Positions 2,762-52,587 of a stretch of 64,000 nt of DNA are shown here, piece after piece. The notes below the pieces were generated by a model that saw nothing but the letters and a program-made list of their open reading frames with translations, made no database searches and was not told the origin of the DNA. This DNA comes from Escherichia coli (lineage in GTDB: Bacteria > Pseudomonadota > Gammaproteobacteria > Enterobacterales > Enterobacteriaceae), in NCBI RefSeq assembly GCF_016903815.1, contig NZ_CP069973.1; one strand, given 5' to 3'. Made by a program: the position numbers and the translations under genes. How positions within the stretch are numbered: position 1 is the first letter of the stretch; the number at the start of each line of letters is the position of its first letter.

Positions 2762-3373
<612 letters not shown>

Positions 3374-7035: not shown

Positions 7036-7956
7036 TTACAAATGTGTTTTATAAAAAGGAATTAATTTTTCGAGTGCCTGTTTCACAGGTTCTGGCTTAT
7101 CATACAGGTCGTAATGTGAATAACCTTCAACCACGACCAGCTCTTTATGTTTTGAGGCAGCGCGGCCAATAATTTCGCAGCCGTCACGGTAGGCACCAAA
7201 TGCGCCCACTCTATCGCCCACCACAACCATTATTGGTTGAGTTAACAGGACTTCTGCAAGATGAAATGCATCCCAACCCACGGCAACAGTCTGATGTGAG
7301 AATAGCGAACGATTTACCCCATTAGGTGCACAGCCTCGTGGCGAACGATAATATTCTGTGGCTTCAAAAAGGTCTATTTCTGTTAATCCCGCTTCAAGAG
7401 CTGCATCCGGAGAAGAGGGGAGTAAATCATCTACGCGAAGTTTTGCGCCGTTAGCTTCGTCTGTTCTTTGTTGCGCCATCGCTTCGAGTGCTCCGATAGG
7501 ATTAAACGCTGTAAATCCCTCACGCATAAGACGCCCGTAGTTTGCACCCGTGACAGTACCAATAGCTTTAATTCGACGTTCTGTCATTGCGGCATTAATG
7601 GCATATCCACCTCCACCACAAATACCCAGTACACCAATACGCCCGGCATCAACGTAAGGTAAGGTGGTAAGGTAATCAACGACAATGCTGAAGTCTTTTA
7701 CTCGCATTGTTGGATCTTCCAGATAACGCGGTTCTCCACCGCTGCTTCCCTGAAAACTGGCATCAAAAGCAATGACGATAAAGCCAGCTTTTGCCAGGGC
7801 GGCACCATACACACTACCCGATGTCTGTTCTTTGCAGCTTCCAATTGGATGGGCGCTGATAATGGCAGGATACTTTTTTTCACTATTAAAATCGTCAGGG
7901 AAATAGATATCAGCAGCTATATCCCAGTAAGTATGTTTTATCGAAACAGTTTTCAT
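7036..7956 (-). CDS. Alpha/beta hydrolase (dienelactone-hydrolase-like)
   Basis: 306-aa ORF; GICGGGGYA nucleophile-elbow-like motif; same strand as and upstream of the OYE gene. Confidence 0.7.
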   Translation of the reverse strand: MKTVSIKHTYWDIAADIYFPDDFNSEKKYPAIISAHPIGSCKEQTSGSVYGAALAKAGFIVIAFDASFQGSSGGEPRYLEDPTMRVKDFSIVVDYLTTLPYVDAGRIGVLGICGGGGYAINAAMTERRIKAIGTVTGANYGRLMREGFTAFNPIGALEAMAQQRTDEANGAKLRVDDLLPSSPDAALEAGLTEIDLFEATEYYRSPRGCAPNGVNRSLFSHQTVAVGWDAFHLAEVLLTQPIMVVVGDRVGAFGAYRDGCEIIGRAASKHKELVVVEGYSHYDLYDKPEPVKQALEKLIPFYKTHL

Positions 7957-8112
7957 TTCAAGCTCCGGGGATTTGCCTAAACAGATTTAAATATCATTTC
8001 TATTATCCGCAACTGGCATTCGTGTTCATATCGAGAACGGCGTAATAGTATGACTTGTATTGGTTATCATCAATGGTCTAATATCTATCACAGTGTTAAG
8101 TTAAGGTTTACA

Positions 8113-9039
8113 ATGATGAAAATAGAGCCTTCAATTTTGCCTTCTCTTGCCTGGTTTGCGCTTATTGTTCGTGCCGGCAGTTTTTCCAGAGCCGCTTCTG
8201 AAATGGGTATTACGCGGGCCGCATTGTCCCAGAATTTAAAATCTCTTGAGGAACGTCTTAACACCAAGCTGATATACCGTACGACCCGCAATATGTCGCT
8301 TACTGAGGAAGGACAGCGTCTGTATGAAGTGCTGGTGTCGGCTTTGGGGCAAATTGATGATGCTTTGAAAGATGTTGGTGATACCCAACTTGAACCTACA
8401 GGCCTGTTGAGAATAAATTCCTCCCGTGTTGCAGCACGGATGCTTGTTGAGCCTCATATTGGCGAGTTTCTTACTCGTTACCCCAAAACAAAGATAGAAC
8501 TCATTATGGATGACGGTTTATCTAACATTATTGCGGACGGCTGTGATGTGGGCATACGTCTTGAGCAAGGACTGGATGAGCATATGACTGCCGTTCCTGT
8601 TTCTCCGCTTATTAAACTGGTTACTGTGGCATCGCCAGATTATTTAAAAGAACACGGTATTCCTGAAACGCCTCAGGAACTGAGTAACCATAATTGCCTT
8701 CGGTTGCGGCATAAAAGTAGCGGTGCACTCTCTGCATGGGAGTTTTCTAATGTTGTGGGGGGTAATGAAGAGTTCGAAATAGAGGTTTCAGGTAAGTATA
8801 TTTCTAATGATGACGAAAGCATGATACGAATGGCGCTGAATGGAACGGGTATCATTCAACATCTGGATTTTGCAATCGCTGAACATATCAATGCGGGCAA
8901 GTTACAGCCGATTCTTGAGGATTGGGCCGTTTCATTTCCTGGATTTTATATATATGTTTCATCACGGGTGAGAATGCCCTCTAAAGTTCGTGCTTTTATT
9001 GATTTTATGGTGGAGAAAAGAGTAAAAATAGAAAGTTAA
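8113..9039 (+). CDS. LysR-family transcriptional regulator
   Basis: N-terminal HTH (LAWFALIVRAGSFSRAASEMGITRAALSQNLKSLEERLN); start set at the internal MMKIEP after AAGG; divergent from the hydrolase gene. Confidence 0.8.
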   Translation: MMKIEPSILPSLAWFALIVRAGSFSRAASEMGITRAALSQNLKSLEERLNTKLIYRTTRNMSLTEEGQRLYEVLVSALGQIDDALKDVGDTQLEPTGLLRINSSRVAARMLVEPHIGEFLTRYPKTKIELIMDDGLSNIIADGCDVGIRLEQGLDEHMTAVPVSPLIKLVTVASPDYLKEHGIPETPQELSNHNCLRLRHKSSGALSAWEFSNVVGGNEEFEIEVSGKYISNDDESMIRMALNGTGIIQHLDFAIAEHINAGKLQPILEDWAVSFPGFYIYVSSRVRMPSKVRAFIDFMVEKRVKIES

Positions 9040-9121
9040 TGATGTGTGTCAGAATATCGGTAAGAAGAATGGCGCAATCGTGAGGATACGTTTATTCATA
9101 ATAAATCTCCTGAAAGTTTAG

Positions 9122-12045
<2,924 letters not shown>

Positions 12046-12595
12046 TTATCGTTCATGAGAAGCATAACGTAAAGGGAAAAGCTCGATTAGACGGCAGGAT
12101 TTGTCAGGGGGTATGAACAAAATTCATAAATCTGTTTGAGGGTTGAGATTAGTCGTGCAAGTTCGATATCCCCGGAATTTACAGTCCGATGAATATAAAT
12201 GAATGTCCATAAAAAATATATTGGTTTATCCTGGCGTATATACTCACTTCGACGTACTCCCAATAGCAGTTAATTAAAGACGGGTCATTATTATTCACTC
12301 TTAATAATGAATTATTCACTGCCCGCAGAGTAAGAAATATAACTTAAGTATCTATTTAATAACTTGCACAAAAAGCTAAATTTTTACCCATAAATAAAAA
12401 TATAATCCCGCGCCCAACCACCTGATGAGTGGCTACAGACACTGGATATATTAGGTGGCGGTGTACTTTCTTACATAAAGGTATTTCCTTTTCTGCGGAA
12501 AAGGAAACCGGGAAATCCCCGGTTTTTCTGACAAGCAGACGCCATTATTTGTGTCTGCCTATGTTCGTTAATTCGTTCATCAGGAAATTATCTCA

Positions 12596-15500
12596 ATGTC
12601 ACGTTATAAAACAGGTCATAAACAACCACGATTTCGTTATTCAGTTCTGGCCCGCTGCGTGGCGTGGGCAAATATCTCTGTTCAGGTTCTTTTTCCACTC
12701 GCTGTCACCTTTACGCCAGTAATGGCAGCACGTGCGCAGCATACGGTTCAGCCACGTTTGAGCATGGAAAATACCACAGTAGCTGCTGATAATAATGTGG
12801 AGAAAAATGTCGCGTCGTTTGCCGCAAATGCCGGGACATTTTTAAGCAGTCAGCCAGATAGCGATGCGACACGTAACTTTATTACCGGAATGGCCACAGC
12901 TAAAGCTAACCAGGAAATACAGGAGTGGCTCGGGAAATATGGTACTGCGCGCGTCAAACTGAATGTCGATAAAGAATTCTCGCTGAAGGATTCTTCGCTG
13001 GAAATGCTTTATCCGATTTATGATACGCCGACAAATATGTTGTTCACTCAGGGAGCAATACATCGTACCGACGATCGTACTCAGTCAAATATTGGTTTTG
13101 GCTGGCGTCATTTTTCAGGAAATGACTGGATGGCGGGGGTGAACACCTTTATCGACCATGATTTATCCCGTAGTCATACCCGCATTGGTGTTGGTGCGGA
13201 ATACTGGCGTGATTATTTGAAATTGAGCGCCAATGGTTATATCCGGGCTTCTGGCTGGAAAAAATCGCCGGATGTTGAGGATTATCAGGAACGCCCGGCG
13301 AATGGCTGGGATATTCGTGCTGAGGGCTATTTACCCGCCTGGCCGCAGCTTGGCGCAAGCCTGATGTATGAGCAGTATTATGGCGATGAAGTCGGGCTGT
13401 TTGGCAAAGATAAACGCCAGAAAGATCCACATGCGATTACCGCTGAAGTGAATTACACGCCAGTGCCTCTTCTGACCCTGAGTGCCGGGCATAAGCAGGG
13501 CAAGAGTGGTGAGAATGACACTCGCTTTGGCTTGGAAGTTAATTATCGGATTGGCGAACCTCTGCAAAAACAACTCGATACAGACAGCATTCGCGAGCGT
13601 CGAATGCTGGCAGGCAGCCGCTATGACCTGGTTGAGCGTAATAACAACATCGTTCTTGAGTACCGCAAATCTGAAGTGATCCGTATTGCTCTGCCTGAGC
13701 GTATTGAAGGTAAGGGCGGTCAGACGGTTTCCCTGGGGCTTGTGGTCAGCAAAGCAACACACGGACTGAAAAATGTGCAGTGGGAAGCGCCGTCATTACT
13801 GGCTGAAGGTGGCAAAATTACCGGTCAGGGTAGTCAGTGGCAAGTAACGCTCCCGGCTTATCGTCCAGGCAAAGACAATTATTATGCGATTTCAGCAGTT
13901 GCCTACGATAACAAAGGCAATGCCTCGAAACGTGTGCAGACAGAAGTGGTTATTACCGGAGCTGGTATGAGCGCCGATCGCACGGCGTTAACGCTTGACG
14001 GTCAGAGCCGTATTCAAATGCTTGCTAACGGTAATGAGCAAAAGCCGCTGGTGCTGTCTCTGCGCGACGCCGAGGGTCAGCCAGTCACGGGCATGAAGGA
14101 GCAGATCAAGACTGAACTAACCTTCAAACCGGCTGGAAATATTGTGACTCGTACCCTGAAGGCCACTAAATCACAGGCACAGCCCACACTGGGTGAGTTC
14201 ACCGAAACTGAAGCAGGGGTGTACCAGTCTGTCTTTACGACCGGAACGCAGTCAGGTGAGGCAACGATTACTGTTAGCGTTGATGGCATGAGCAAAACCG
14301 TCACTGCAGAACTGCGGGCCACGATGATGGATGTGGCAAACTCCACCCTGAGCGCTAACGAGCCGTCAGGTGACGTGGTTGCTGATGGTCAGCAAGCCTA
14401 CACGCTGACGCTGACTGCGGTGGACTCCGAGGGTAATCCGGTGACGGGAGAAGCCAGCCGCCTGCGACTTGTTCCGCAAGACACTAATGGTGTTACCGTT
14501 GGTGCCATTTCGGAAATAAAACCAGGGGTTTACAGCGCCACGGTTTCTTCGACCCGTGCCGGAAACGTTGTTGTGCGCGCCTTCAGCGAGCAGTATCAGC
14601 TGGGCACATTACAACAAACGCTGAAGTTTGTTGCCGGGCCGCTTGATGCAGCACATTCGTCCATCACCCTGAATCCTGATAAACCGGTGGTCGGCGGTAC
14701 GCTTACGGCAATCTGGTCGACAAAAGATGCCAATGACAACCCTGTGACCAGCCTCACGCCGGAAGCGCCGTCATTAGCGGGTGCCGCTGCTGTTGGTTCT
14801 ACGGCATCTGGCTGGACAAATAATGGTGATGGGACGTGGACTGCGCAGATTACTCTCGGCTCTACGGCGGGTGAATTAGAAGTTATGCCGAAGCTAAATG
14901 GACAGGATGCGGCAGCAAATGCGGCAAAAGTAACCGTGGTGGCTGATGCGTTATCTTCAAACCAGTCGAAAGTCTCTGTCGCGGAAGATCACGTAAAAGC
15001 CGGCGAAAGCACAACCGTGACGTTGGTGGCGAAAGATGCACATGGCAACGCTATCAGTGGTCTTTCGTTGTCGGCAAGTTTGACGGGGACCGCCTCTGAA
15101 GGGGCGACCGTTTCCAGTTGGACCGAAAAAGGTGACGGTTCCTATGTTGCTACGTTAACTACAGGCGGAAAGACGGGCGAGCTTCGTGTCATGCCGCTCT
15201 TCAACGGCCAGCCAGCAGCCACCGAAGCCGCGCAGCTGACTGTTATTGCCGGAGAGATGTCATCAGCGAATTCTACGCTTGTTGCGGACAATAAAACTCC
15301 AACGGTTAAAACGACGACGGAACTCACCTTCACCGTGAAGGATGCGTACGGGAATCCGGTCACCGGGCTGAAGCCAGATGCACCAGTGTTTAGCGGTGCC
15401 GCCAGCACGGGGAGTGAGCGTCCTTCAGCAGGAAACTGGACAGAGAAAGGTAATGGGGTCTACGTGTCGACCTTAACGCTGGGATCTGCCGCGGGTCAGT

Positions 15501-42956: not shown

Positions 42957-44339
42957 ATGAAAGAAAGCAATAGCCGCCGTGAGTTTCTGAGCCAGAGCGG
43001 TAAGATGGTCACCGCCGCCGCGCTGTTTGGTACCTCTGTGCCGCTCGCCCATGCGGCAGTCTCTGGCACAACCCACTGCGACGCGAATAACACCATGAAA
43101 ATCACTGACCCGCACTACTATCTCGACAACGTGTTGCTGGAAACCGGTTTTGACTACGAAAATGGCGTGGCGGTGCAGACCCGCACGGCGCGCCAGACTG
43201 TGGAAATTCAGAACGGCAAAATTGTTGCACTGCGCGAGAACAATCAGCATCCGGACGCCACGCTGCCGCACTATGACGCTGGCGGTAAGCTGATGCTGCC
43301 CACTACCCGCGACATGCATATTCATCTCGACAAAACCTTTTACGGCGGGCCGTGGCGCTCGCTCAATCGTCCGGCAGGCACCACCATCCAGGACATGATC
43401 AAACTTGAGCAGAAAATGCTGCCGGAGTTGCAACCGTACACTCAGGAACGGGCGGAAAAACTGATCGATTTATTGCAATCGAAAGGCACCACCATTGCCC
43501 GCAGTCACTGCAATATCGAACCGGTTTCCGGCCTAAAAAATCTGCAAAATTTGCAGGCGGTACTGGCGCGACGTCAGGCGGGCTTCGAGTGTGAAATCGT
43601 CGCCTTCCCGCAGCACGGTTTGCTGCTGTCGAAATCGGAACCCTTAATGCGCGAAGCGATGCAGGCGGGGGCGCATTACGTCGGCGGGCTGGACCCGACC
43701 AGTGTCGATGGCGCGATGGAAAAATCCCTCGACACCATGTTCCAGATTGCGCTGGACTACGACAAAGGCGTCGATATTCACCTGCACGAAACCACTCCGG
43801 CAGGCGTGGCAGCCATCAATTATATGGTTGAAACGGTAGAGAAAACGCCGCAACTGAAAGGCAAGCTAACCATCAGCCACGCCTTTGCGTTGGCAACGCT
43901 CAACGAACAACAGGTAGATGAACTGGCGAACCGGATGGCGGCGCAGCAAATTTCTATCGCCTCGACGGTGCCGATTGGCACGTTGCATATGCCGCTCAAA
44001 CAGTTGCACGACAAAGGCGTAAAAGTGATGACCGGCACCGACAGCGTTATCGACCACTGGTCGCCTTACGGCCTGGGCGACATGCTGGAAAAAGCCAATC
44101 TGTACGCGCAGCTCTATATTCGTCCTAACGAACAGAACCTCTCCCGCTCGCTGTTTTTAGCCACTGGCGATGTATTGCCGCTCAACGAAAAAGGCGAGCG
44201 CGTGTGGCCCAAAGCGCAGGATGATGCCAGCTTTGTGCTGGTGGACGCCTCCTGTTCCGCCGAGGCGGTGGCGCGTATCTCGCCGAGAACGGCGACGTTC
44301 CATAAAGGGCAACTGGTGTGGGGGAGTGTGGCAGGTTGA
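42957..44339 (+). CDS. yahJ: Metal-dependent amidohydrolase/deaminase with twin-arginine signal
   Basis: 460-aa ORF; Tat-like N-terminus (SRREFLSQSGKMVTAAALFG...AHA); HIHLD metal-binding motif. Confidence 0.8.
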   Translation: MKESNSRREFLSQSGKMVTAAALFGTSVPLAHAAVSGTTHCDANNTMKITDPHYYLDNVLLETGFDYENGVAVQTRTARQTVEIQNGKIVALRENNQHPDATLPHYDAGGKLMLPTTRDMHIHLDKTFYGGPWRSLNRPAGTTIQDMIKLEQKMLPELQPYTQERAEKLIDLLQSKGTTIARSHCNIEPVSGLKNLQNLQAVLARRQAGFECEIVAFPQHGLLLSKSEPLMREAMQAGAHYVGGLDPTSVDGAMEKSLDTMFQIALDYDKGVDIHLHETTPAGVAAINYMVETVEKTPQLKGKLTISHAFALATLNEQQVDELANRMAAQQISIASTVPIGTLHMPLKQLHDKGVKVMTGTDSVIDHWSPYGLGDMLEKANLYAQLYIRPNEQNLSRSLFLATGDVLPLNEKGERVWPKAQDDASFVLVDASCSAEAVARISPRTATFHKGQLVWGSVAG

Positions 44340-44607
44340 TACGCATTTGAAACGCCTGCAACGGTGAATAGTAAGAGATTTAAGCCCCAGGGAGTGGGGC
44401 AGCAATGGTTTGCTAATGAATGATCCTGAACTTTATAATCTCCCGGCATAATTTCCAGGGGATTATTTGAGAGAAATACACAAAAGTGAGTTTTAACAAA
44501 GGTATTTATCAAGCCATAAATGTGACCTGCTTTGGATAAAAAAGATTAAGCATCGAAAAACCAATGATCTTCTTGCTGATGGTTATCAACAGTAATTAAG
44601 ATGTGAT

Positions 44608-45048
44608 TTGTTTTTCCGTAATCGCGAAAATATTCTCATGACCATAAAAGAAAAAATCTCACAAAAATATCCCCATGCTTCCTTTTGTACTTTTGGCGAT
44701 TCAGCAGTGTTGGCCGATCACCTCGCAACGTTGATTGCGACTGGTGTTAAAACAGCTTCCTGTGGTTCGCTGGCGGGATGTATTGAAGACAACGCATTTC
44801 CGCTGATTGGTGAGTATAAGATTGTAGAAAATAGCCGTGGTGAGCCTGTCTGTGTTATCAGAGTGATTGGCCTGCATTTACTGCGCTTTTCTGATGTCAC
44901 CGCAGAGCTTGCCCGTAAGGAAGGTGAAGGTGACCTCAGTCTTGAATATTGGCGTAATGAACACCGTCGTTTTTTCCAGGCAGAAGGATGCTATTCACCA
45001 GAAATGGACGTTATCTTTGAAGAATATGCCCTTATTGACGTTGTGTAG
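44608..45048 (+). CDS. Small ASCH-domain-like protein (start may be the MTIKEK Met at about 44638)
   Basis: 146-aa ORF; no close match to recalled K-12 genes; the domain call is tentative. Confidence 0.5.
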   Translation: MFFRNRENILMTIKEKISQKYPHASFCTFGDSAVLADHLATLIATGVKTASCGSLAGCIEDNAFPLIGEYKIVENSRGEPVCVIRVIGLHLLRFSDVTAELARKEGEGDLSLEYWRNEHRRFFQAEGCYSPEMDVIFEEYALIDVV

Positions 45049-45298
45049 ATAACTATTTTTCTACGCGAAATAAGCTCACAAACATAAAGCATCGCTAATT
45101 TTGTTTATTTTGCTGTTTTTTACGTGATGATTGTCACACTTATTGTTACTGCCCGTTTTGTCCATATTTATAACCAAATTTTTAATAGCTGCCTGAAATA
45201 GGGCTGTTTATTCTGCATAAAAATATTCGAAAATTCTTATTCTCTCCAGCGCGCTAATTTGGGCGAACACTTCCTGACTACCCTGCAATGAGGCTGAA

Positions 45299-46285
45299 AT
45301 GATGAATAAACGTTTTGTTATCAATATGGTGTCTTCGCTGTTATTAGGCGCTGCGCTAATTTCTGCGCCGCTCCAGGCAGCGGAAAAAGTCGTGGTGAAT
45401 ATCTCTAAAGTCGATGGTATGCCGTGGTTTAATCGCATGGGCGAAGGTGTGGTTGAGGCGGGTAAAGCCTTTGGTGTTAATGCGTCACAGGTGGGGCCTT
45501 CAAGTACTGATGCTCCGCAACAAGTTAAAATTATTGAGGATTTAATCGCCCGTAAGGTTAATGCAATTACAATTGTGCCAAACGATGCCAACGTGCTGGA
45601 ACCGGTATTCAAAAAAGCGCGAGATGCCGGAATTGTGGTTCTGACCAACGAATCCCCCGGTCAGCCAAGTGCTAACTGGGATATCGAAATCATTGATAAC
45701 GAAAAATTTGCCGCTGAATATGTTGAGCATATGGCGAAACGCATGGGTGGCAAGGGCGGTTATGTGATTTACGTGGGTAGTTTGACCGTGCCGCAGCATA
45801 ACTTATGGGCTGACTTGCTGGTGAAATACCAGAAAGAGCATTACCCGGATATGCATGAAGTTACCCGCCGCATGCCGGTTGCCGAGAGTGTGGATGACTC
45901 ACGTCGTACCACACTGGACCTCATGAAAACCTATCCTGACTTGAAAGCGGTTGTCTCCTTTGGTTCAAACGGTCCGATTGGCGCGGGACGTGCAGTGAAA
46001 GAGAAACGGGCGAAAAATAAAGTCGCAGTCTATGGCATGATGATCCCTTCACAGGCGGCATCACTGATTAAAAGTGGTGATATCACCGAAGGGATTACTT
46101 ACGATCCGGCCTCTGCAGGTTACGCACTCGCGGCCGTCGCCAGCACGTTGCTGAAGGGTGAAGAGATCAAACCTGGATTAGAAATGGAGAATCTCGGTAA
46201 GGCCGACGTAGATATGGATAAGCGAATTATCCGTTTCCATAAGGTATTACTGGTCAACAAAGACAATATCGACTCACTTTATTAA
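45299..46285 (+). CDS. Periplasmic sugar-binding protein (RbsB/YtfQ/LsrB superfamily) of an ABC transporter
   Basis: 328-aa ORF with signal peptide (MMNKRFVINMVSSLLLGAALISAPLQA); C-terminus VLLVNKDNIDSLY resembles the LsrB/YtfQ ending. Confidence 0.8.
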   Translation: MMNKRFVINMVSSLLLGAALISAPLQAAEKVVVNISKVDGMPWFNRMGEGVVEAGKAFGVNASQVGPSSTDAPQQVKIIEDLIARKVNAITIVPNDANVLEPVFKKARDAGIVVLTNESPGQPSANWDIEIIDNEKFAAEYVEHMAKRMGGKGGYVIYVGSLTVPQHNLWADLLVKYQKEHYPDMHEVTRRMPVAESVDDSRRTTLDLMKTYPDLKAVVSFGSNGPIGAGRAVKEKRAKNKVAVYGMMIPSQAASLIKSGDITEGITYDPASAGYALAAVASTLLKGEEIKPGLEMENLGKADVDMDKRIIRFHKVLLVNKDNIDSLY

Positions 46286-46333
46286 TCCATTTCTTCGGGG
46301 CGAAAGCCCCGATTCTTATTGCCAGGGGATGCT

Positions 46334-47818
46334 ATGGAAACCTTCCTTTCCCTTCGTCATATCAACAAAACGTTTCATGCCACGCGAGCGCTGCGCGATG
46401 TTTCTCTCGACTTTATGTCGGGTGAGGTGCACTGCCTTGCCGGGCAAAACGGCTGTGGTAAATCGACGTTGATTAAAATTATGTCCGGTGTTTATCGCCC
46501 GGATGAGGGGGCGGAAATTACGCTTGGTGGGAAAAACTGGTCAAAGCTGACACCCGCCGCTTCGGTGGCGCAGGGGATTCTGGTGATTTATCAGGACCTC
46601 TCTTTATTTCCTAACCTGAGTGTCTGGGAGAATATCGCCGTGAATCACTATCACCACGGTCTGTTTGTTAACCGCCGTCGTCTGCGTGAGGTGGCGCAGG
46701 CGGCAATGACCAGTATTAACGTCACATTGCCACTGGATACGCTCGTTTCTGAGCTTTCAATTGCCCGCTGTCAGCTGGTGGCAATTTGCCGTGCACTGGC
46801 GCAGGACGCACGGTTGATCGTGATGGATGAACCAACCGCTTCGCTGACCCATCAGGAAGTGCAAGGGTTATTACAGGTGGTGCATCAATTGCGGGAACGC
46901 GGGATCTGCGTGGTCTTCGTCAGTCATCGTCTGGAAGAAGTGATGGAAGTTTCCGACCGTATTTCAGTGCTGAAAGATGGTGAGCTGGTCGGGACCTTTC
47001 CGGCTGCAGAGATGACCACAAAACAACTCGGTTTCCTGATGACCGGCCAGGAGTTTGAATATCAGGTGCGAGAGTTGTGGCAGGGAAAATCCAGCATCCC
47101 AGTGCTGGAGGTGCGTAATTTAAGTCGTCATGGGGAATATCAAAATATTAACTTGCGGGTGGAAGCGGGCGAAGTGGTGTCGATTGTTGGCCTGCTTGGT
47201 GCGGGGCGCACGGAATTATGTCTGAGTCTGTTTGGTATGACCCGACCGGATGCTGGCGAGATCCTCATCAACGGCCAGCTGGTTACACTGCATAGTAACC
47301 AGGACGCCATCCGCCACGGTATTGGTTATGTTTCGGAAGATCGCATGTCGCGCGGTTTGGTGATGGCGCAATCTATTGAAGACAACATCATTAGCACTGT
47401 TTTTCACAAGGTAAAAGATCGCTTCGGCTTTCTGAGTGAAGCTAAAGTGCGTGACCTGGTGGACAGGCTAATCAAGGCATTGACCATCAAAGTCTCTGAC
47501 CCACATCTCCCGGTGAATACGCTTTCTGGGGGTAACGCGCAGCGAGTATCGATCGCCAAATGGCTGGCGATTGGGCCACGACTGTTGATTCTCGATAGCC
47601 CGACTGTCGGTGTTGATATCGCCAACAAAGCAGGAATATACGGCATTATCAGCGATCTGGCGGCTCATGGCATTGCGGTATTGATGATCTGCGATGAAAT
47701 TGAAGAAGCGTGGTATCAAAGCCACCGGATTTTGGTAATGCAAAAAGGTCAGATCACCCATAGCTTCCTGCCTGACAGCAGTTCTCAGGCCAGGATTGCG
47801 GAGGTGGTAAATGGCTGA
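46334..47818 (+). CDS. ABC transporter ATPase with duplicated nucleotide-binding domains
   Basis: Walker A GQNGCGKST, LSGGNAQR signature, second NBD; start set at METFLSL after AGGGGA. Confidence 0.85.
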   Translation: METFLSLRHINKTFHATRALRDVSLDFMSGEVHCLAGQNGCGKSTLIKIMSGVYRPDEGAEITLGGKNWSKLTPAASVAQGILVIYQDLSLFPNLSVWENIAVNHYHHGLFVNRRRLREVAQAAMTSINVTLPLDTLVSELSIARCQLVAICRALAQDARLIVMDEPTASLTHQEVQGLLQVVHQLRERGICVVFVSHRLEEVMEVSDRISVLKDGELVGTFPAAEMTTKQLGFLMTGQEFEYQVRELWQGKSSIPVLEVRNLSRHGEYQNINLRVEAGEVVSIVGLLGAGRTELCLSLFGMTRPDAGEILINGQLVTLHSNQDAIRHGIGYVSEDRMSRGLVMAQSIEDNIISTVFHKVKDRFGFLSEAKVRDLVDRLIKALTIKVSDPHLPVNTLSGGNAQRVSIAKWLAIGPRLLILDSPTVGVDIANKAGIYGIISDLAAHGIAVLMICDEIEEAWYQSHRILVMQKGQITHSFLPDSSSQARIAEVVNG

Positions 47819-48782
47819 ACTGAAAAAACGCCATGAATTCTGGCTGGCATTACTGATTGTGGTGCTGTTTGTTGGCCTTGCCTGGCGCAGCGACGAGTTT
47901 CTGACATTCGGTAATTTGTACGATCTCGCCAATAACTATGCCATGTTGACTATTCTCGCCTGTGGTTTGTTTGTGGTGTTAATTTCCGGTGGGATTGATA
48001 TTTCGTTTCCGGCAATGACCATCATTGCGCAATACGGCATGGTGCTGCTGCTGCAAAAAATTGGTGGCAACTTTGCTGTTGCGTTTGCCCTGGCGGGCGG
48101 CATCGGCATTTTACTTGGCTTAATTAACGCCTTACTGGTTAATCGCCTACGGGTGCCGTCTATCATCATCACCATTTCGACGCTGAATATTTTCTATGGC
48201 CTGCTGTTATGGTTGAGTAAAGGTGTGTGGCTGTACGACTTTCCGCCGTGGTTTGAGCAGGGGGTAATGTTGTTCAAGTACACCGATGCTGACGGCTATG
48301 ACTATGGCCTTGGTCTGCCGCTGATCGCCATGATTACGGTGGTGCTGCTGACAGCGTTTATCATGAATTTCACCAGTGTAGGGCGCAAAATTTATGCCCT
48401 TGGCGGGAACCGTGAATCCGCCAGTCGCATCGGCTTTAGCGTGCTGAAACTGCAACTTTTCGTCTACGGCTATATGGGATTGATGTCTGGCGCTGCGGGT
48501 GTAGTGCAGTCGTGGACGGTGATGACTGTCGCCCCCGATTCTCTTCTGGGTTATGAGCTGACAGTACTGGCTGCGGTGGTGCTTGGCGGCACTAGTTTGC
48601 TCGGCGGGCGCGGCACGTTAACCGGTACTTTGCTCGGCGTGGTGTTGTTGGCAGTGATGCAAAACGGGCTAAATTTATTGGGAGTCTCGTCTTACTGGCA
48701 AACATTGATCACCGGCATCATCATCGTTGCCAGCATTAGCGCCACGGCGTGGAGTCAGCATCAGAACCGGAGTCTGCTATGA
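47811..48782 (+). CDS. ABC transporter permease
   Basis: 323-aa polytopic ORF; start overlaps the ATPase stop by 8 bp. Confidence 0.85.
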   Translation: MAELKKRHEFWLALLIVVLFVGLAWRSDEFLTFGNLYDLANNYAMLTILACGLFVVLISGGIDISFPAMTIIAQYGMVLLLQKIGGNFAVAFALAGGIGILLGLINALLVNRLRVPSIIITISTLNIFYGLLLWLSKGVWLYDFPPWFEQGVMLFKYTDADGYDYGLGLPLIAMITVVLLTAFIMNFTSVGRKIYALGGNRESASRIGFSVLKLQLFVYGYMGLMSGAAGVVQSWTVMTVAPDSLLGYELTVLAAVVLGGTSLLGGRGTLTGTLLGVVLLAVMQNGLNLLGVSSYWQTLITGIIIVASISATAWSQHQNRSLL

Positions 48783-49735
48783 AAAAATCGTGGCGTAATA
48801 ACGTTGAGTTTTACTTGATCGGCCTGCTGGTGCTAACTGTTGCCGCGTTCAGCATTACTATGCCGGAGATTTTCTGGTCGATAAGTAATTTCCAGTCCGT
48901 CGCTTCGCAAATGCCCGTGCTGGGCATTCTGGCGTTGGCTATGGCGGTGACCATGCTTTGCGGTGGCATTAACTTGTCAATTATAGCCACTGCTAACGCC
49001 TGTTCACTGGTGATGGCGTGGGTGGCGACTCAGTATCCACCGGGTATTGCTACGGTTGTCGCTACGCTGCTGGCGGGCGCTGGCGCGGCGGTGATAATCG
49101 GTTTATGTAACGGCGTATTGATTGCTGGTATTCGAGTGTCGCCAATTCTTGCAACACTCGGGATGATGACGTTGCTCAAAGGGGTAAATATTCTGGTGAC
49201 AGGCGGTAGCGCCATTGCCAATTATCCCTCATGGGTGCTGTGGTTGAATCATGCACAGTGGTTCGGTATTCCGCTACCGATGTGGTTGTTTGCCGCAGTG
49301 GCGCTGGGGCTGTGGATATTGCTGGAGAAAACGCCGCTCGGTAAATCCATTTATCTGATTGGTTCTAACGAACGAGCAACACTTTACTCCGGCATTAACA
49401 CTCGTCGGGTGCTGATTTGGGTTTATGTCATTTCCGCCTTGCTTTGTGCGGTAGCGGCATTTTTGATGATGTCGAAACTCAACTCGGCTAAGGCCTCTTA
49501 TGGCGAATCGTACTTGCTGGTGTCAATCCTCGCGGCAGTACTCGGCGGGGTTAATCCGGACGGCGGCAGCGGGCGGATAATTGGTATGGTGCTGGCGCTG
49601 TTTCTTCTGCAAATTATTGAAAGCGGCTTCAATATTCTCGGTATAAGCCCCTACCTGACGATGGCCTTATGGGGAACGTTGCTGCTCTGTTTCATTCAGG
49701 CTCGCGGCATGTTGGGGCTGGATCGGGTGGTTTAA
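48779..49735 (+). CDS. ABC transporter permease
   Basis: Polytopic ORF; start taken at MKKSWRNN, overlapping the upstream stop (ATGA). Confidence 0.8.
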   Translation: MKKSWRNNVEFYLIGLLVLTVAAFSITMPEIFWSISNFQSVASQMPVLGILALAMAVTMLCGGINLSIIATANACSLVMAWVATQYPPGIATVVATLLAGAGAAVIIGLCNGVLIAGIRVSPILATLGMMTLLKGVNILVTGGSAIANYPSWVLWLNHAQWFGIPLPMWLFAAVALGLWILLEKTPLGKSIYLIGSNERATLYSGINTRRVLIWVYVISALLCAVAAFLMMSKLNSAKASYGESYLLVSILAAVLGGVNPDGGSGRIIGMVLALFLLQIIESGFNILGISPYLTMALWGTLLLCFIQARGMLGLDRVV

Positions 49736-49821
49736 ATATTGGCTATATTCAATGGACGCGTTTTGCCGCGATGACATATCAGGCATCGCCAAATACACAT
49801 AGCTAATCAGGAGTAAACACA

Positions 49822-50871
49822 ATGAAGATCAAAGCTGTTGGTGCATATTCCGCTAAACAACCACTTGAACCGATGGATATCACCCGGCGTGAACCGGGAC
49901 CGCATGATGTCAAAATTGAAATCGCTTACTGTGGCGTCTGCCATTCCGATCTCCACCAGGTCCGTTCCGAGTGGGCGGGGACGGTTTATCCCTGCGTGCC
50001 GGGCCATGAAATTGTAGGGCGCGTGGTAGCCGTTGGTGATCAGGTAGAAAAATATGCGCCGGGCGATCTGGTCGGTGTCGGCTGTATTGTCGACAGTTGT
50101 AAACATTGCGAAGAGTGTGAAGACGGGCTGGAAAACTACTGTGATCACATGACCGGCACCTATAACTCGCCGACGCCGGACGAACCGGGCCATACTCTGG
50201 GCGGCTACTCACAACAGATCGTCGTTCATGAGCGATATGTTCTGCGTATTCGTCACCCGCAAGAGCAGCTGGCGGCGGTGGCACCTTTGTTGTGTGCAGG
50301 GATCACCACGTATTCGCCGCTACGTCACTGGCAGGTCGGTCCGGGTAAAAAAGTGGGCGTGGTCGGCATCGGCGGTCTGGGACATATGGGGATTAAGCTG
50401 GCCCACGCGATGGGGGCGCATGTGGTGGCATTTACCACTTCTGAGTCAAAACGCGAAGCGGCAAAAGCCCTGGGGGCCGATGAAGTTGTTAACTCACGCA
50501 ATGCCGATGAGATGGCGGCTCATGTGAAGAGTTTCGATTTCATTTTGAATACAGTAGCTGCGCCACATAATCTCGACGATTTTACCACCTTGCTGAAGCG
50601 TGATGGCACCATGACGCTGGTTGGTGCGCCTGCGACACCGCATAAATCGCCGGAAGTTTTCAACCTGATCATGAAACGCCGTGCGATAGCCGGTTCTATG
50701 ATTGGCGGCATTCCAGAAACTCAGGAGATGCTCGATTTTTGCGCCGAACATGGCATCGTGGCTGATATAGAGATGATTCGGGCCGATCAAATTAATGAAG
50801 CCTATGAGCGAATGCTGCGAGGAGATGTGAAATATCGTTTTGTTATCGATAATCGCACACTAACAGACTGA
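49822..50871 (+). CDS. yahK: Zn-dependent NADPH aldehyde reductase (cinnamyl-alcohol-dehydrogenase family)
   Basis: 349-aa ORF with GHE..G and CGVCHSD zinc-ADH motifs and GxGxxG (GVVGIGGLGHMG); AGGAG RBS. Confidence 0.9.
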   Translation: MKIKAVGAYSAKQPLEPMDITRREPGPHDVKIEIAYCGVCHSDLHQVRSEWAGTVYPCVPGHEIVGRVVAVGDQVEKYAPGDLVGVGCIVDSCKHCEECEDGLENYCDHMTGTYNSPTPDEPGHTLGGYSQQIVVHERYVLRIRHPQEQLAAVAPLLCAGITTYSPLRHWQVGPGKKVGVVGIGGLGHMGIKLAHAMGAHVVAFTTSESKREAAKALGADEVVNSRNADEMAAHVKSFDFILNTVAAPHNLDDFTTLLKRDGTMTLVGAPATPHKSPEVFNLIMKRRAIAGSMIGGIPETQEMLDFCAEHGIVADIEMIRADQINEAYERMLRGDVKYRFVIDNRTLTD

Positions 50872-52184: not shown

Positions 52185-52341
52185 CCATCATGTTTGTGTG
52201 GGGTCTTTTCTGTATCTTACGCATCGCACTCAAGCCTGACAGAAAATATGCTGTAAGGCTCATATCAAAAACCGCCATTAGCTCATCAGGAAGAGCAGAC
52301 GACAACCAGGATTGTTGTATGGTACGGGGTTCGAGGCCTCG

Positions 52342-52587
52342 ATGGCGGTCCAACTTTTCATAACTCTTCTGAATCAGCTCCCCTTATTATCATCCCTGCA
52401 AAGTGGAACATTACCATTGTTTGGCTATTCAGGACGGGTCAGAGCAATGAAAAAAGCCCACACAGGGGAGAGTGGGCTGAAATGGGAAGCTAAAGACTCA
52501 AGTAAACTTATCGGAAATAAGGACCACGCATTACGGGGGCTATCATCGCCGATGGTCGGGATTCGGCAAATCAGGTTGATTACGTAG
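52342..52587 (+). CDS. yahM: Small hypothetical protein
   Basis: 81-aa product from MAVQLFITLLNQ within a 91-aa track ORF; symbol by size and synteny. Confidence 0.45.
   Translation: MAVQLFITLLNQLPLLSSLQSGTLPLFGYSGRVRAMKKAHTGESGLKWEAKDSSKLIGNKDHALRGLSSPMVGIRQIRLIT

Follow-up and report, generated by a model that had tools for sequence, protein, structure and literature searches.

The accessory L-arabinose uptake system (Aau) of enterohemorrhagic Escherichia coli (EHEC) is an ATP-binding cassette (ABC) transporter, AauABCD, encoded by Z0415-Z0419 of O-island 17 and described in two papers by Cottam et al. (Nat Commun 2024, PMC11127945, and 2025, PMC12307932). Here, we compare with it, and with the related systems introduced below, a block of genes between yahJ and yahK (positions 44340-49800) in a 64-kb stretch of E. 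coli DNA (contig NZ_CP069973.1 of RefSeq assembly GCF_016903815.1). This whole stretch is referred to as the window, and all open reading frames (ORFs) of the block lie on its plus strand. An earlier note made from the window sequence alone had described the block as an insert holding an ASCH-like gene and a sugar transporter.

Much is already known about Aau. Induction of its promoter was measured in EHEC; L-arabinose is the sole inducer, and an araC mutant shows no induction (PMC11127945). In the crystal structure of the substrate-binding protein (SBP) AauA (PDB 9I1M), alpha-D-ribulofuranose is held by K37, W43, E118, H167, E196, and S223, and isothermal titration calorimetry gave dissociation constants of 1.98 µM for D-ribulose and 598 µM for L-arabinose (PMC12307932). 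The imported D-ribulose is phosphorylated by AraB (PMC12307932). Use of D-ribulose by EHEC needs L-arabinose to be present as well, in that AraC switches on aau and AraB phosphorylates the D-ribulose (PMC11127945, PMC12307932). In streptomycin-treated mice, an aau mutant was out-competed 10- to 100-fold (PMC11127945, PMC12307932); the relevance of Aau to gut colonization by EHEC is therefore already published, and no new question is opened here on that point. The closest relative is the Rbl system (RblABCD-RblK-RblI), a D-ribulose utilization locus of Citrobacter rodentium (PMC12307932). What we add to an already characterized system is the polarity of the difference from K-12 (a deletion), a candidate operator and its conservation, orthologues within ara clusters, and a correction to the annotation. 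The Aau papers leave the ASCH gene out of the locus, and the portions of their text that we examined describe neither the scar left in K-12 nor the operator sequence.

Gene content and identity

Our reading of the locus, to which as a whole we give a probability of about 0.9, is that the block represents Aau at its chromosomal site, accompanied by an unrelated ASCH gene, that AraC would act on it directly through an operator, and that the K-12 state arose by deletion. The genes concerned are as follows.

42957-44339, plus strand: yahJ-like amidohydrolase (ORF list)
44638-45048, plus strand: ASCH-domain gene, 136 amino acids (Pfam PF04266, E = 1.2e-21)
45299-46285, plus strand: aauA, SBP, 328 amino acids with a Sec-type signal peptide (ORF list, PDB match)
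46334-47818, plus strand: aauB, ABC ATPase with tandem nucleotide-binding domains (NBDs), 494 amino acids (ORF list, NCBIfam)
47811-48782, plus strand: aauC, permease 1, 323 amino acids (ORF list, NCBIfam)
48779-49735, plus strand: aauD, permease 2, 318 amino acids (ORF list, NCBIfam, RefSeq start)
49822-50871, plus strand: yahK (ORF list)

Two of these starts differ from the mechanical ORFs: for aauB (mechanical start TTG 46319) we chose ATG 46334, in agreement with RefSeq, and for aauD (mechanical start GTG 48749) we chose ATG 48779, as in homologues and RefSeq.

The SBP matches 9I1M over 328/328 residues (711.9 bits, ~99% identity), with only two substitutions, neither of them at a contact residue. 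All six residues that hold D-ribulose in the crystal are present in the window protein, and they are invariant in 81 relatives, the Rbl type included. A structural-genomics entry from Klebsiella, PDB 3d02, is ~93% identical. The same arrangement, yahJ-ASCH-SBP-ATPase-permease-permease-yahK, occurs in O157:H7 strain F7349 at 97.5% nucleotide identity to the window. There, however, the ATPase gene (locus L002, 4993-6477) is a pseudogene, in which a CAG-to-TAG change at nucleotide 259 converts codon 87 to a stop (Q87*). The same stop has been published for the TUV93-0/EDL933 lineage (PMC11127945), whereas aauB in the window has no internal stop. It follows that the best-known EHEC reference lineage would lack a functional Aau system and that the strain represented by the window would have one, since the ATPase is interrupted in the former and intact in the latter.

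The earlier note read the gene content well. The SBP-ATPase-permease-permease order stands, with every ORF present on the plus strand, and so does the proposed translational coupling, for which the sequence gives an overlap of 8 nucleotides (nt) between the aauB stop and the aauC start (47811-47818, ATGGCTGA) and one of 4 nt between the aauC stop and the aauD start (48779-48782, ATGA). It had also remarked on the lack of a neighboring regulator or catabolic enzyme, and indeed no regulator, kinase, or isomerase is found in the ORF list of the block. Its guess at a furanose sugar is borne out by the alpha-D-ribulofuranose in the 9I1M pocket (PMC12307932). It had, however, left the ligand unassigned, and this has been superseded by the published work, which supplies a micromolar ligand (D-ribulose, ~2 µM, against ~600 µM for L-arabinose), a regulator acting in trans (AraC), and a kinase acting in trans (AraB).

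Going by those experiments, the system would work as follows. AraC, the product of a core-genome gene at another site, would activate the aauA promoter when bound to L-arabinose; AauA would capture alpha-D-ribulofuranose at micromolar affinity and L-arabinose weakly; AauBCD would import the sugar; and the core L-ribulokinase AraB would convert D-ribulose to D-ribulose-5-phosphate, which would enter the pentose phosphate pathway. The lack of an adjacent regulator or catabolic enzyme is then accounted for, because AraC and AraB are supplied in trans by the core ara regulon.

One alternative, and the one implied by the original name, is that Aau serves mainly as a second, high-capacity L-arabinose importer and that D-ribulose binding is incidental. 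Induction by L-arabinose and an AraC-type operator would suit such a role, as would the position of the cassette inside ara clusters in several taxa (see below) and the partial rescue of an araE mutant by overexpression (PMC11127945). On the other hand, AauA binds L-arabinose with an affinity over 200-fold below that for D-ribulose, an aau deletion mutant grows on L-arabinose without a defect, and the D-ribulose contacts are shared even with the Rbl systems, which are dedicated to D-ribulose (PMC12307932). We therefore regard the arabinose importer as unlikely.

Comparison with other CUT2 transporters

All four transporter proteins fall in the monosaccharide CUT2 families of ABC transporters, although every equivalog score lies below its cut-off (NCBIfam). 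The architecture is that of CUT2 systems: an ATPase of ~500 amino acids with two NBDs, two permeases of ~320 amino acids, and a periplasmic SBP related to RbsB, LsrB, and RhaS. The ATPase matches the AraG, XylG, YtfR, and RbsA models over its full length (410 to 422 bits for AraG, XylG, and YtfR), the permeases match AraH, RbsC, and LsrC/D, and the SBP matches RhaS, LsrB, AlsB, and RbsB.

The transporters for galactofuranose (YtfQRT-YjfF) and rhamnose (RhaSTPQ) share with Aau the CUT2 family and the order SBP-ATPase-permease-permease, but they differ from it in their ligands, and all Aau scores lie far below their equivalog cut-offs. Membership of YtfQRT-YjfF was rejected on scores of 410 bits against 850 for YtfR, 63 and 97 against 535 for YtfT, and 123 and 75 against 363 for YjfF; membership of RhaSTPQ was rejected on a RhaS score of 136.9 bits against 342. 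Of the YtfQRT/YjfF likeness drawn in the earlier note, then, the gene order and the family stand and the closer kinship does not. Its YtfQ-like SBP also falls away, as no YtfQ-type model matched and the best scores were those of RhaS and LsrB.

RefSeq names the SBP "autoinducer 2 ABC transporter substrate-binding protein." An autoinducer 2 (AI-2)-like ligand had likewise been entertained in the earlier note. Such a reading, an Lsr-type AI-2 uptake system, is not without some basis: LsrB is among the closest characterized SBP families (PDB entries of LsrB are matched at E values of ~1e-21 to 1e-24), the two proteins align over ~280 residues, LsrACDB is likewise of the CUT2 family, and both SBPs bind a furanose-type ligand. 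Chemically, R-THMF (AI-2) resembles alpha-D-ribulofuranose, likewise a furanose, and is a near-isostere of it. The AI-2-contacting residues of LsrB are said, after the 2009 account of Pereira and colleagues, to be K35, D116, D166, Q167, P220, and A222; aligned to 5gta, AauA has K37, E118, Q166, H167, F221, and S223 at these positions, so that only K37 is identical (1/6) and five of the six signature positions differ. As an LsrB-type receptor, the SBP was rejected with 111.1 bits against an equivalog cut-off of 384 (NCBIfam). An lsr operon context was rejected as well, for the order is SBP first rather than lsrACDB, and lsrK, lsrR, lsrF, and lsrG are not adjacent. The likeness to LsrB that the earlier note saw in the C-terminal NKDNIDSLY is not recovered either, as HMMER alignments to LsrB end near residue 306. 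AI-2 was not among the ligands assayed, and the 2025 paper contains no instance of the word "autoinducer"; that paper reports the crystal structure and calorimetry that give D-ribulose at 2 µM (PMC12307932), and the promoter is induced by L-arabinose and carries an AraC-type operator. Taken together, these results make Lsr-type uptake extremely improbable. Since the LsrB score, the signature residues, the gene order, and the neighbors all disagree with it, the RefSeq name is misleading and should be replaced. A narrower proposition, that proteins of the AauA family accept AI-2 in addition and that Aau is an arabinose-controlled second route for AI-2 scavenging, appears to us very doubtful; if true, ~41% of complete E. 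coli genomes would have a second AI-2 route, as would many members of the Enterobacterales and Pasteurellaceae.

Candidate CRP and AraC sites upstream of aauA

The region between the ASCH gene and aauA contains a candidate regulatory site that resembles the araBAD promoter.

45120-45141, plus strand: candidate CRP site cGTGAtgattgTCACA, with a gap of 11 nt to the I1-like half-site (10-sequence alignment)
45150-45187, plus strand: candidate AraC operator, I1-like half-site, 4-nt spacer, and I2-like half-site (alignment, regular expression)
45150-45166, plus strand: I1-like half-site TGCCCGTTTTGTCCATA (alignment)
45171-45187, plus strand: I2-like half-site TAACCAAATTTTTAATA (alignment)

We aligned 10 upstream regions, namely, those of E. 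coli, Escherichia locus L031 (see below), Klebsiella, Franconibacter (two), Mangrovibacter (two), Symbiopectobacterium (two), and Aeromonas. The CRP-type pattern GTGA-N6-TCAC is present in 9/10; TCAC is invariant, and Aeromonas has GTGC in the first half. In the relatives, the consensus runs GTGA-N6-TCACA followed by TAGCnTTTTTATCCATA-TTTA-TAGCAG, to be compared with TAGCATTTTTATCCATA-AGAT-TAGCGG at araI in the K-12 genome. The candidate aau operator thus resembles araBAD (CRP-araI1-araI2) in site order, direct-repeat geometry, TCCATA core, and 4-nt spacer, and the gap between CRP site and I1 is similar (11 nt, against 12 nt at araBAD). It differs in that the window half-sites are degenerate, with TGCC and TAAC in place of TAGC. 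The O157 promoter region is essentially that of the window, and the 38-nt motif differs between them at a single position.

A regular expression built from the I1 core and the start of I2 has a single match in the window, both strands considered, and also matches the true araI of K-12. When sought in the 400 nt preceding the SBP gene, the motif was found in 41/58 loci with at least 73% SBP identity and in 0/23 loci at no more than 70% (Vibrio and the Rbl type). We infer from this pattern that CRP would bind at 45120-45141 and that AraC would bind directly at 45150-45187, acting through an araBAD-type CRP-I1-I2 operator (45120-45187); direct action of this kind agrees with the published araC dependence (PMC11127945). 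The operator and the ligand pocket may both be ancestral features of the whole cassette family.

State of the locus across E. coli

The absence of the block from K-12 can be read either as an insertion into the genomes that have it or as a loss from those that do not. To describe its distribution, we surveyed 5,426 complete E. coli genomes, counting the full block as present when at least 80% of it was found. This was the case in 2,211 (~41%), which include EHEC and others, while 2,803 have a 376-bp K-12-type spacer; within E. coli, the locus thus has essentially two states, full block or spacer. The part specific to the ASCH gene was found in 2,213 genomes, i.e., the gene is co-inherited with the transporter.

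The K-12-type spacer is not simply empty. K-12-like genomes keep ~5% of the block, in three pieces. On the left, the alignment to K-12 stops at 44401, and the breakpoint (44401/44402) lies directly 3' of the hairpin listed here with the other two pieces.

44384-44400, plus strand: GC-rich hairpin directly 3' of the yahJ stop, GCCCCAGGGAGTGGGGC (sequence read)
44999-45070, plus strand: middle piece, final ~50 nt of the ASCH gene and the 22 nt that follow, 94% identity to 3082-3153 of the K-12-type locus L001
49664-49821, plus strand: right piece, final 72 nt of aauD together with the spacer to yahK, 99% identity to L001 3217-3374

In K-12, the middle piece translates as EMDIIFEEYALIDVV and the right piece as ALWGTLLLCFIQARGMLGLDRVV, each closed by a stop codon, the latter piece being annotated in RefSeq as a partial coding sequence with "missing N-terminus." Both remnants are in frame, and their order and orientation are those of the full block. 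The K-12-type "empty" sites are therefore deletion scars, because both the ASCH gene and aauD have left their 3' ends there. Two internal deletions, of ~44402-44998 and ~45071-49663, would convert the full block into the K-12-type state. The 63-nt filler between the middle and right pieces (L001 3154-3216) gives a collinear local alignment with the aauA promoter that includes ATCACACTTA and scores ~3.3 standard deviations above shuffled sequences, although one shuffle scored higher; for the 21-nt filler at the first junction, the comparison returned no meaningful match.

These remnants reverse the polarity given in the earlier note, which had called the block an insert and had proposed looking for the empty site across genomes: the site that looks empty holds pieces of two block genes. 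As to whether K-12 has the block at the same position, which that note had attached to its claim, the full block is absent, but the remnants at that very position indicate that it was once present and then deleted.

A more distant locus bears on the age of the block. In L031 (NZ_JAATUR010000022.1, 7684-16633), pdeL is joined to a 100-nt ASCH 3' remnant, which is followed by aauABCD-yahK; identity to the window is 91 to 93% for the aau genes and 83 to 93% for the flanking genes. The aau genes are no less diverged than their flanks, which fits with ASCH-aau-yahK having been inherited vertically from a common ancestor.

The competing explanation, and the picture given in the published papers, is that O-island 17 is a recent, EHEC-associated genomic island, inserted into a yahJ-yahK spacer that was originally empty. 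The system has been termed "horizontally acquired" and is enriched in phylogroups B1 and E (PMC11127945), K-12 lacks the block, the ASCH part is of lower GC content, AauA was not found in representatives of other Escherichia species among the best 80 of 151 relatives, and there are rare plasmid-borne copies. However, the truncated 3' ends of two block genes at the "empty" sites contradict it for the comparison with K-12, carriage by ~41% of complete E. coli genomes is not confined to EHEC, and a lineage diverged by ~10% has the same right junction, with a divergence equal to that of its flanks. Moreover, neither integrase or insertion sequence (IS) ORFs nor tRNAs nor flanking direct or inverted repeats were found in the block or at its edges. 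We consider a recent island distinctly unlikely, and an origin by a mobile element was rejected, as there is no integrase or transposase, tRNA target, or direct repeat and remnants of genes lie at the "empty" sites. "O-island 17" would more aptly be regarded as a long-standing Escherichia locus that K-12 and roughly half of E. coli have lost by a single shared deletion in two parts.

Plasmid carriage, too, was rejected as a sign of mobility, being too rare to account for the distribution. One E. coli plasmid of 68.5 kb (NZ_AP023209.1) carries the aau cassette, as do three Klebsiella quasipneumoniae megaplasmids of 412 to 447 kb (NZ_CP029442.1, NZ_CP029436.1, and NZ_CP029431.1). Most of the other "plasmid" matches are mislabeled chromosomes or F-prime-like records; several multi-megabase PLSDB records are evidently chromosomes or fragments of them.

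Several points weigh against the reading of the block as an Aau locus under direct AraC control that was lost from K-12. The ASCH segment is AT rich (40 to 42% GC, compared with ~50% in the transporter genes and 52 to 57% in the neighbors). Given the absence of other Escherichia species from those best 80 of 151 relatives, an older horizontal acquisition by the common ancestor of E. coli and L031 is possible. The E. coli operator half-sites are degenerate, matching araI at 18/38 positions, and regulation could for this reason be partly indirect. The function that we ascribe to Aau in the window strain is presumed, being carried over from proteins that are ~99% identical, and neither the gut source nor the abundance of free D-ribulose is established by the data examined.

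Two further observations concern the variants of the region. L031 is labeled as E. coli strain SCPM-O-B-8794 but has ~90% DNA identity to the window, and its YahL is 80% identical at the protein level; it looks like a separate Escherichia species carrying the E. coli label. It lacks yahB-yahJ at this position, and there is a ATTTGGCG microhomology at the junction between pdeL and the ASCH remnant. Separately, a rare third state is seen at L083 (NZ_AP027754.1, 4288-5044), where an IS1 element abuts yahK and part of yahE, the genes through yahJ, and the scar are deleted. This IS1 variant shows the region to be liable to deletions that arise independently.

Relatives in other genera

The four-gene cassette is kept in many Enterobacterales and Pasteurellaceae and in Aeromonas and Vibrio, whereas its linkage to the ASCH gene, yahJ, and yahK is restricted to Escherichia. 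In several of these taxa, it lies next to or within genes of arabinose metabolism: the order is araDAB-araFGH-araC-aauABCD in Limnobaculum, aauABCD-araC-araBAD in Providencia, and araC-aauABCD-FGGY kinase in Pasteurellaceae (with AraC recognized by its equivalog model). AraC control is therefore not specific to EHEC, because an araI-like operator accompanies most Aau-type loci and the cassette sits within an ara cluster in some genera. Dependence on AraC would accordingly be a conserved design of the cassette family rather than a hijack peculiar to EHEC.

At ~60% identity, the relatives form a group with a pentulose kinase and an SIS isomerase downstream, which matches the published Rbl locus. 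Rbl has a homologous four-gene transporter in the same gene order, an SBP that is ~60 to 64% identical, and the same six contacts. In contrast to Aau, it has its own FGGY pentulose kinase (TIGR01315) and SIS isomerase directly downstream, lacks the AraC-type motif, and depends for its induction on D-ribulose metabolism rather than on L-arabinose (PMC12307932). Because the ligand pocket is identical, Aau and Rbl are homologous transporters that have diverged rather than inventions that converged; the difference between the two lies in the regulator and the kinase on which each relies.

In Pasteurellaceae, an FGGY kinase gene lies directly 3' of the cassette (L050, 14350-15945, and 13 other loci), with the AraC equivalog upstream. 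Its scores are weak, at 103 bits with the xylulokinase model and 37 bits with the ribulokinase model. This kinase is a candidate for a dedicated D-ribulokinase under AraC control, and no description of it was seen in PMC11127945 or PMC12307932. A 4,748-bp contig assigned to a "Bacteroidales bacterium" metagenome-assembled genome (SFEK01000152.1) encodes AauABCD proteins 99 to 100% identical to those of the window and is almost certainly an E. coli contig that was mis-binned.

Other features of the window

The ASCH gene is unrelated to the Aau transporter; it is not found beside the cassette in other genera, and the nearest solved structures of its product (1t62 and 3s9x) are both uncharacterized. 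A sigma-70-like promoter (44410-44439, plus strand; TTGCTA-18-TATAAT, 10/12 matches) lies ~200 nt upstream of it, within the segment deleted in K-12, and judging from this arrangement the gene is probably transcribed on its own, apart from aau.

Outside the block, ARAGORN called a tRNA-Ser (anticodon GGA) at 52272-52352 (plus strand), between yahL and yahN and overlapping the yahM ORF. This call is probably a false positive; the segment has no Rfam match at E of 1 or less, and no tRNA is annotated there in RefSeq K-12 or O157. Within 43500-50500, an Rfam scan at gathering thresholds for structured RNAs and riboswitches gave zero matches.

Finally, the scan for terminator-like structures, together with a reading of the sequence, picked out one element between the SBP and ATPase genes.

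46295-46312, plus strand: aauA-aauB intergenic hairpin, GC rich and followed by a T-rich tail (terminator-like scan, sequence read)

It is possible that this hairpin acts as a partial terminator or as an mRNA stabilizer, in either of which roles it would raise the ratio of SBP to transporter.

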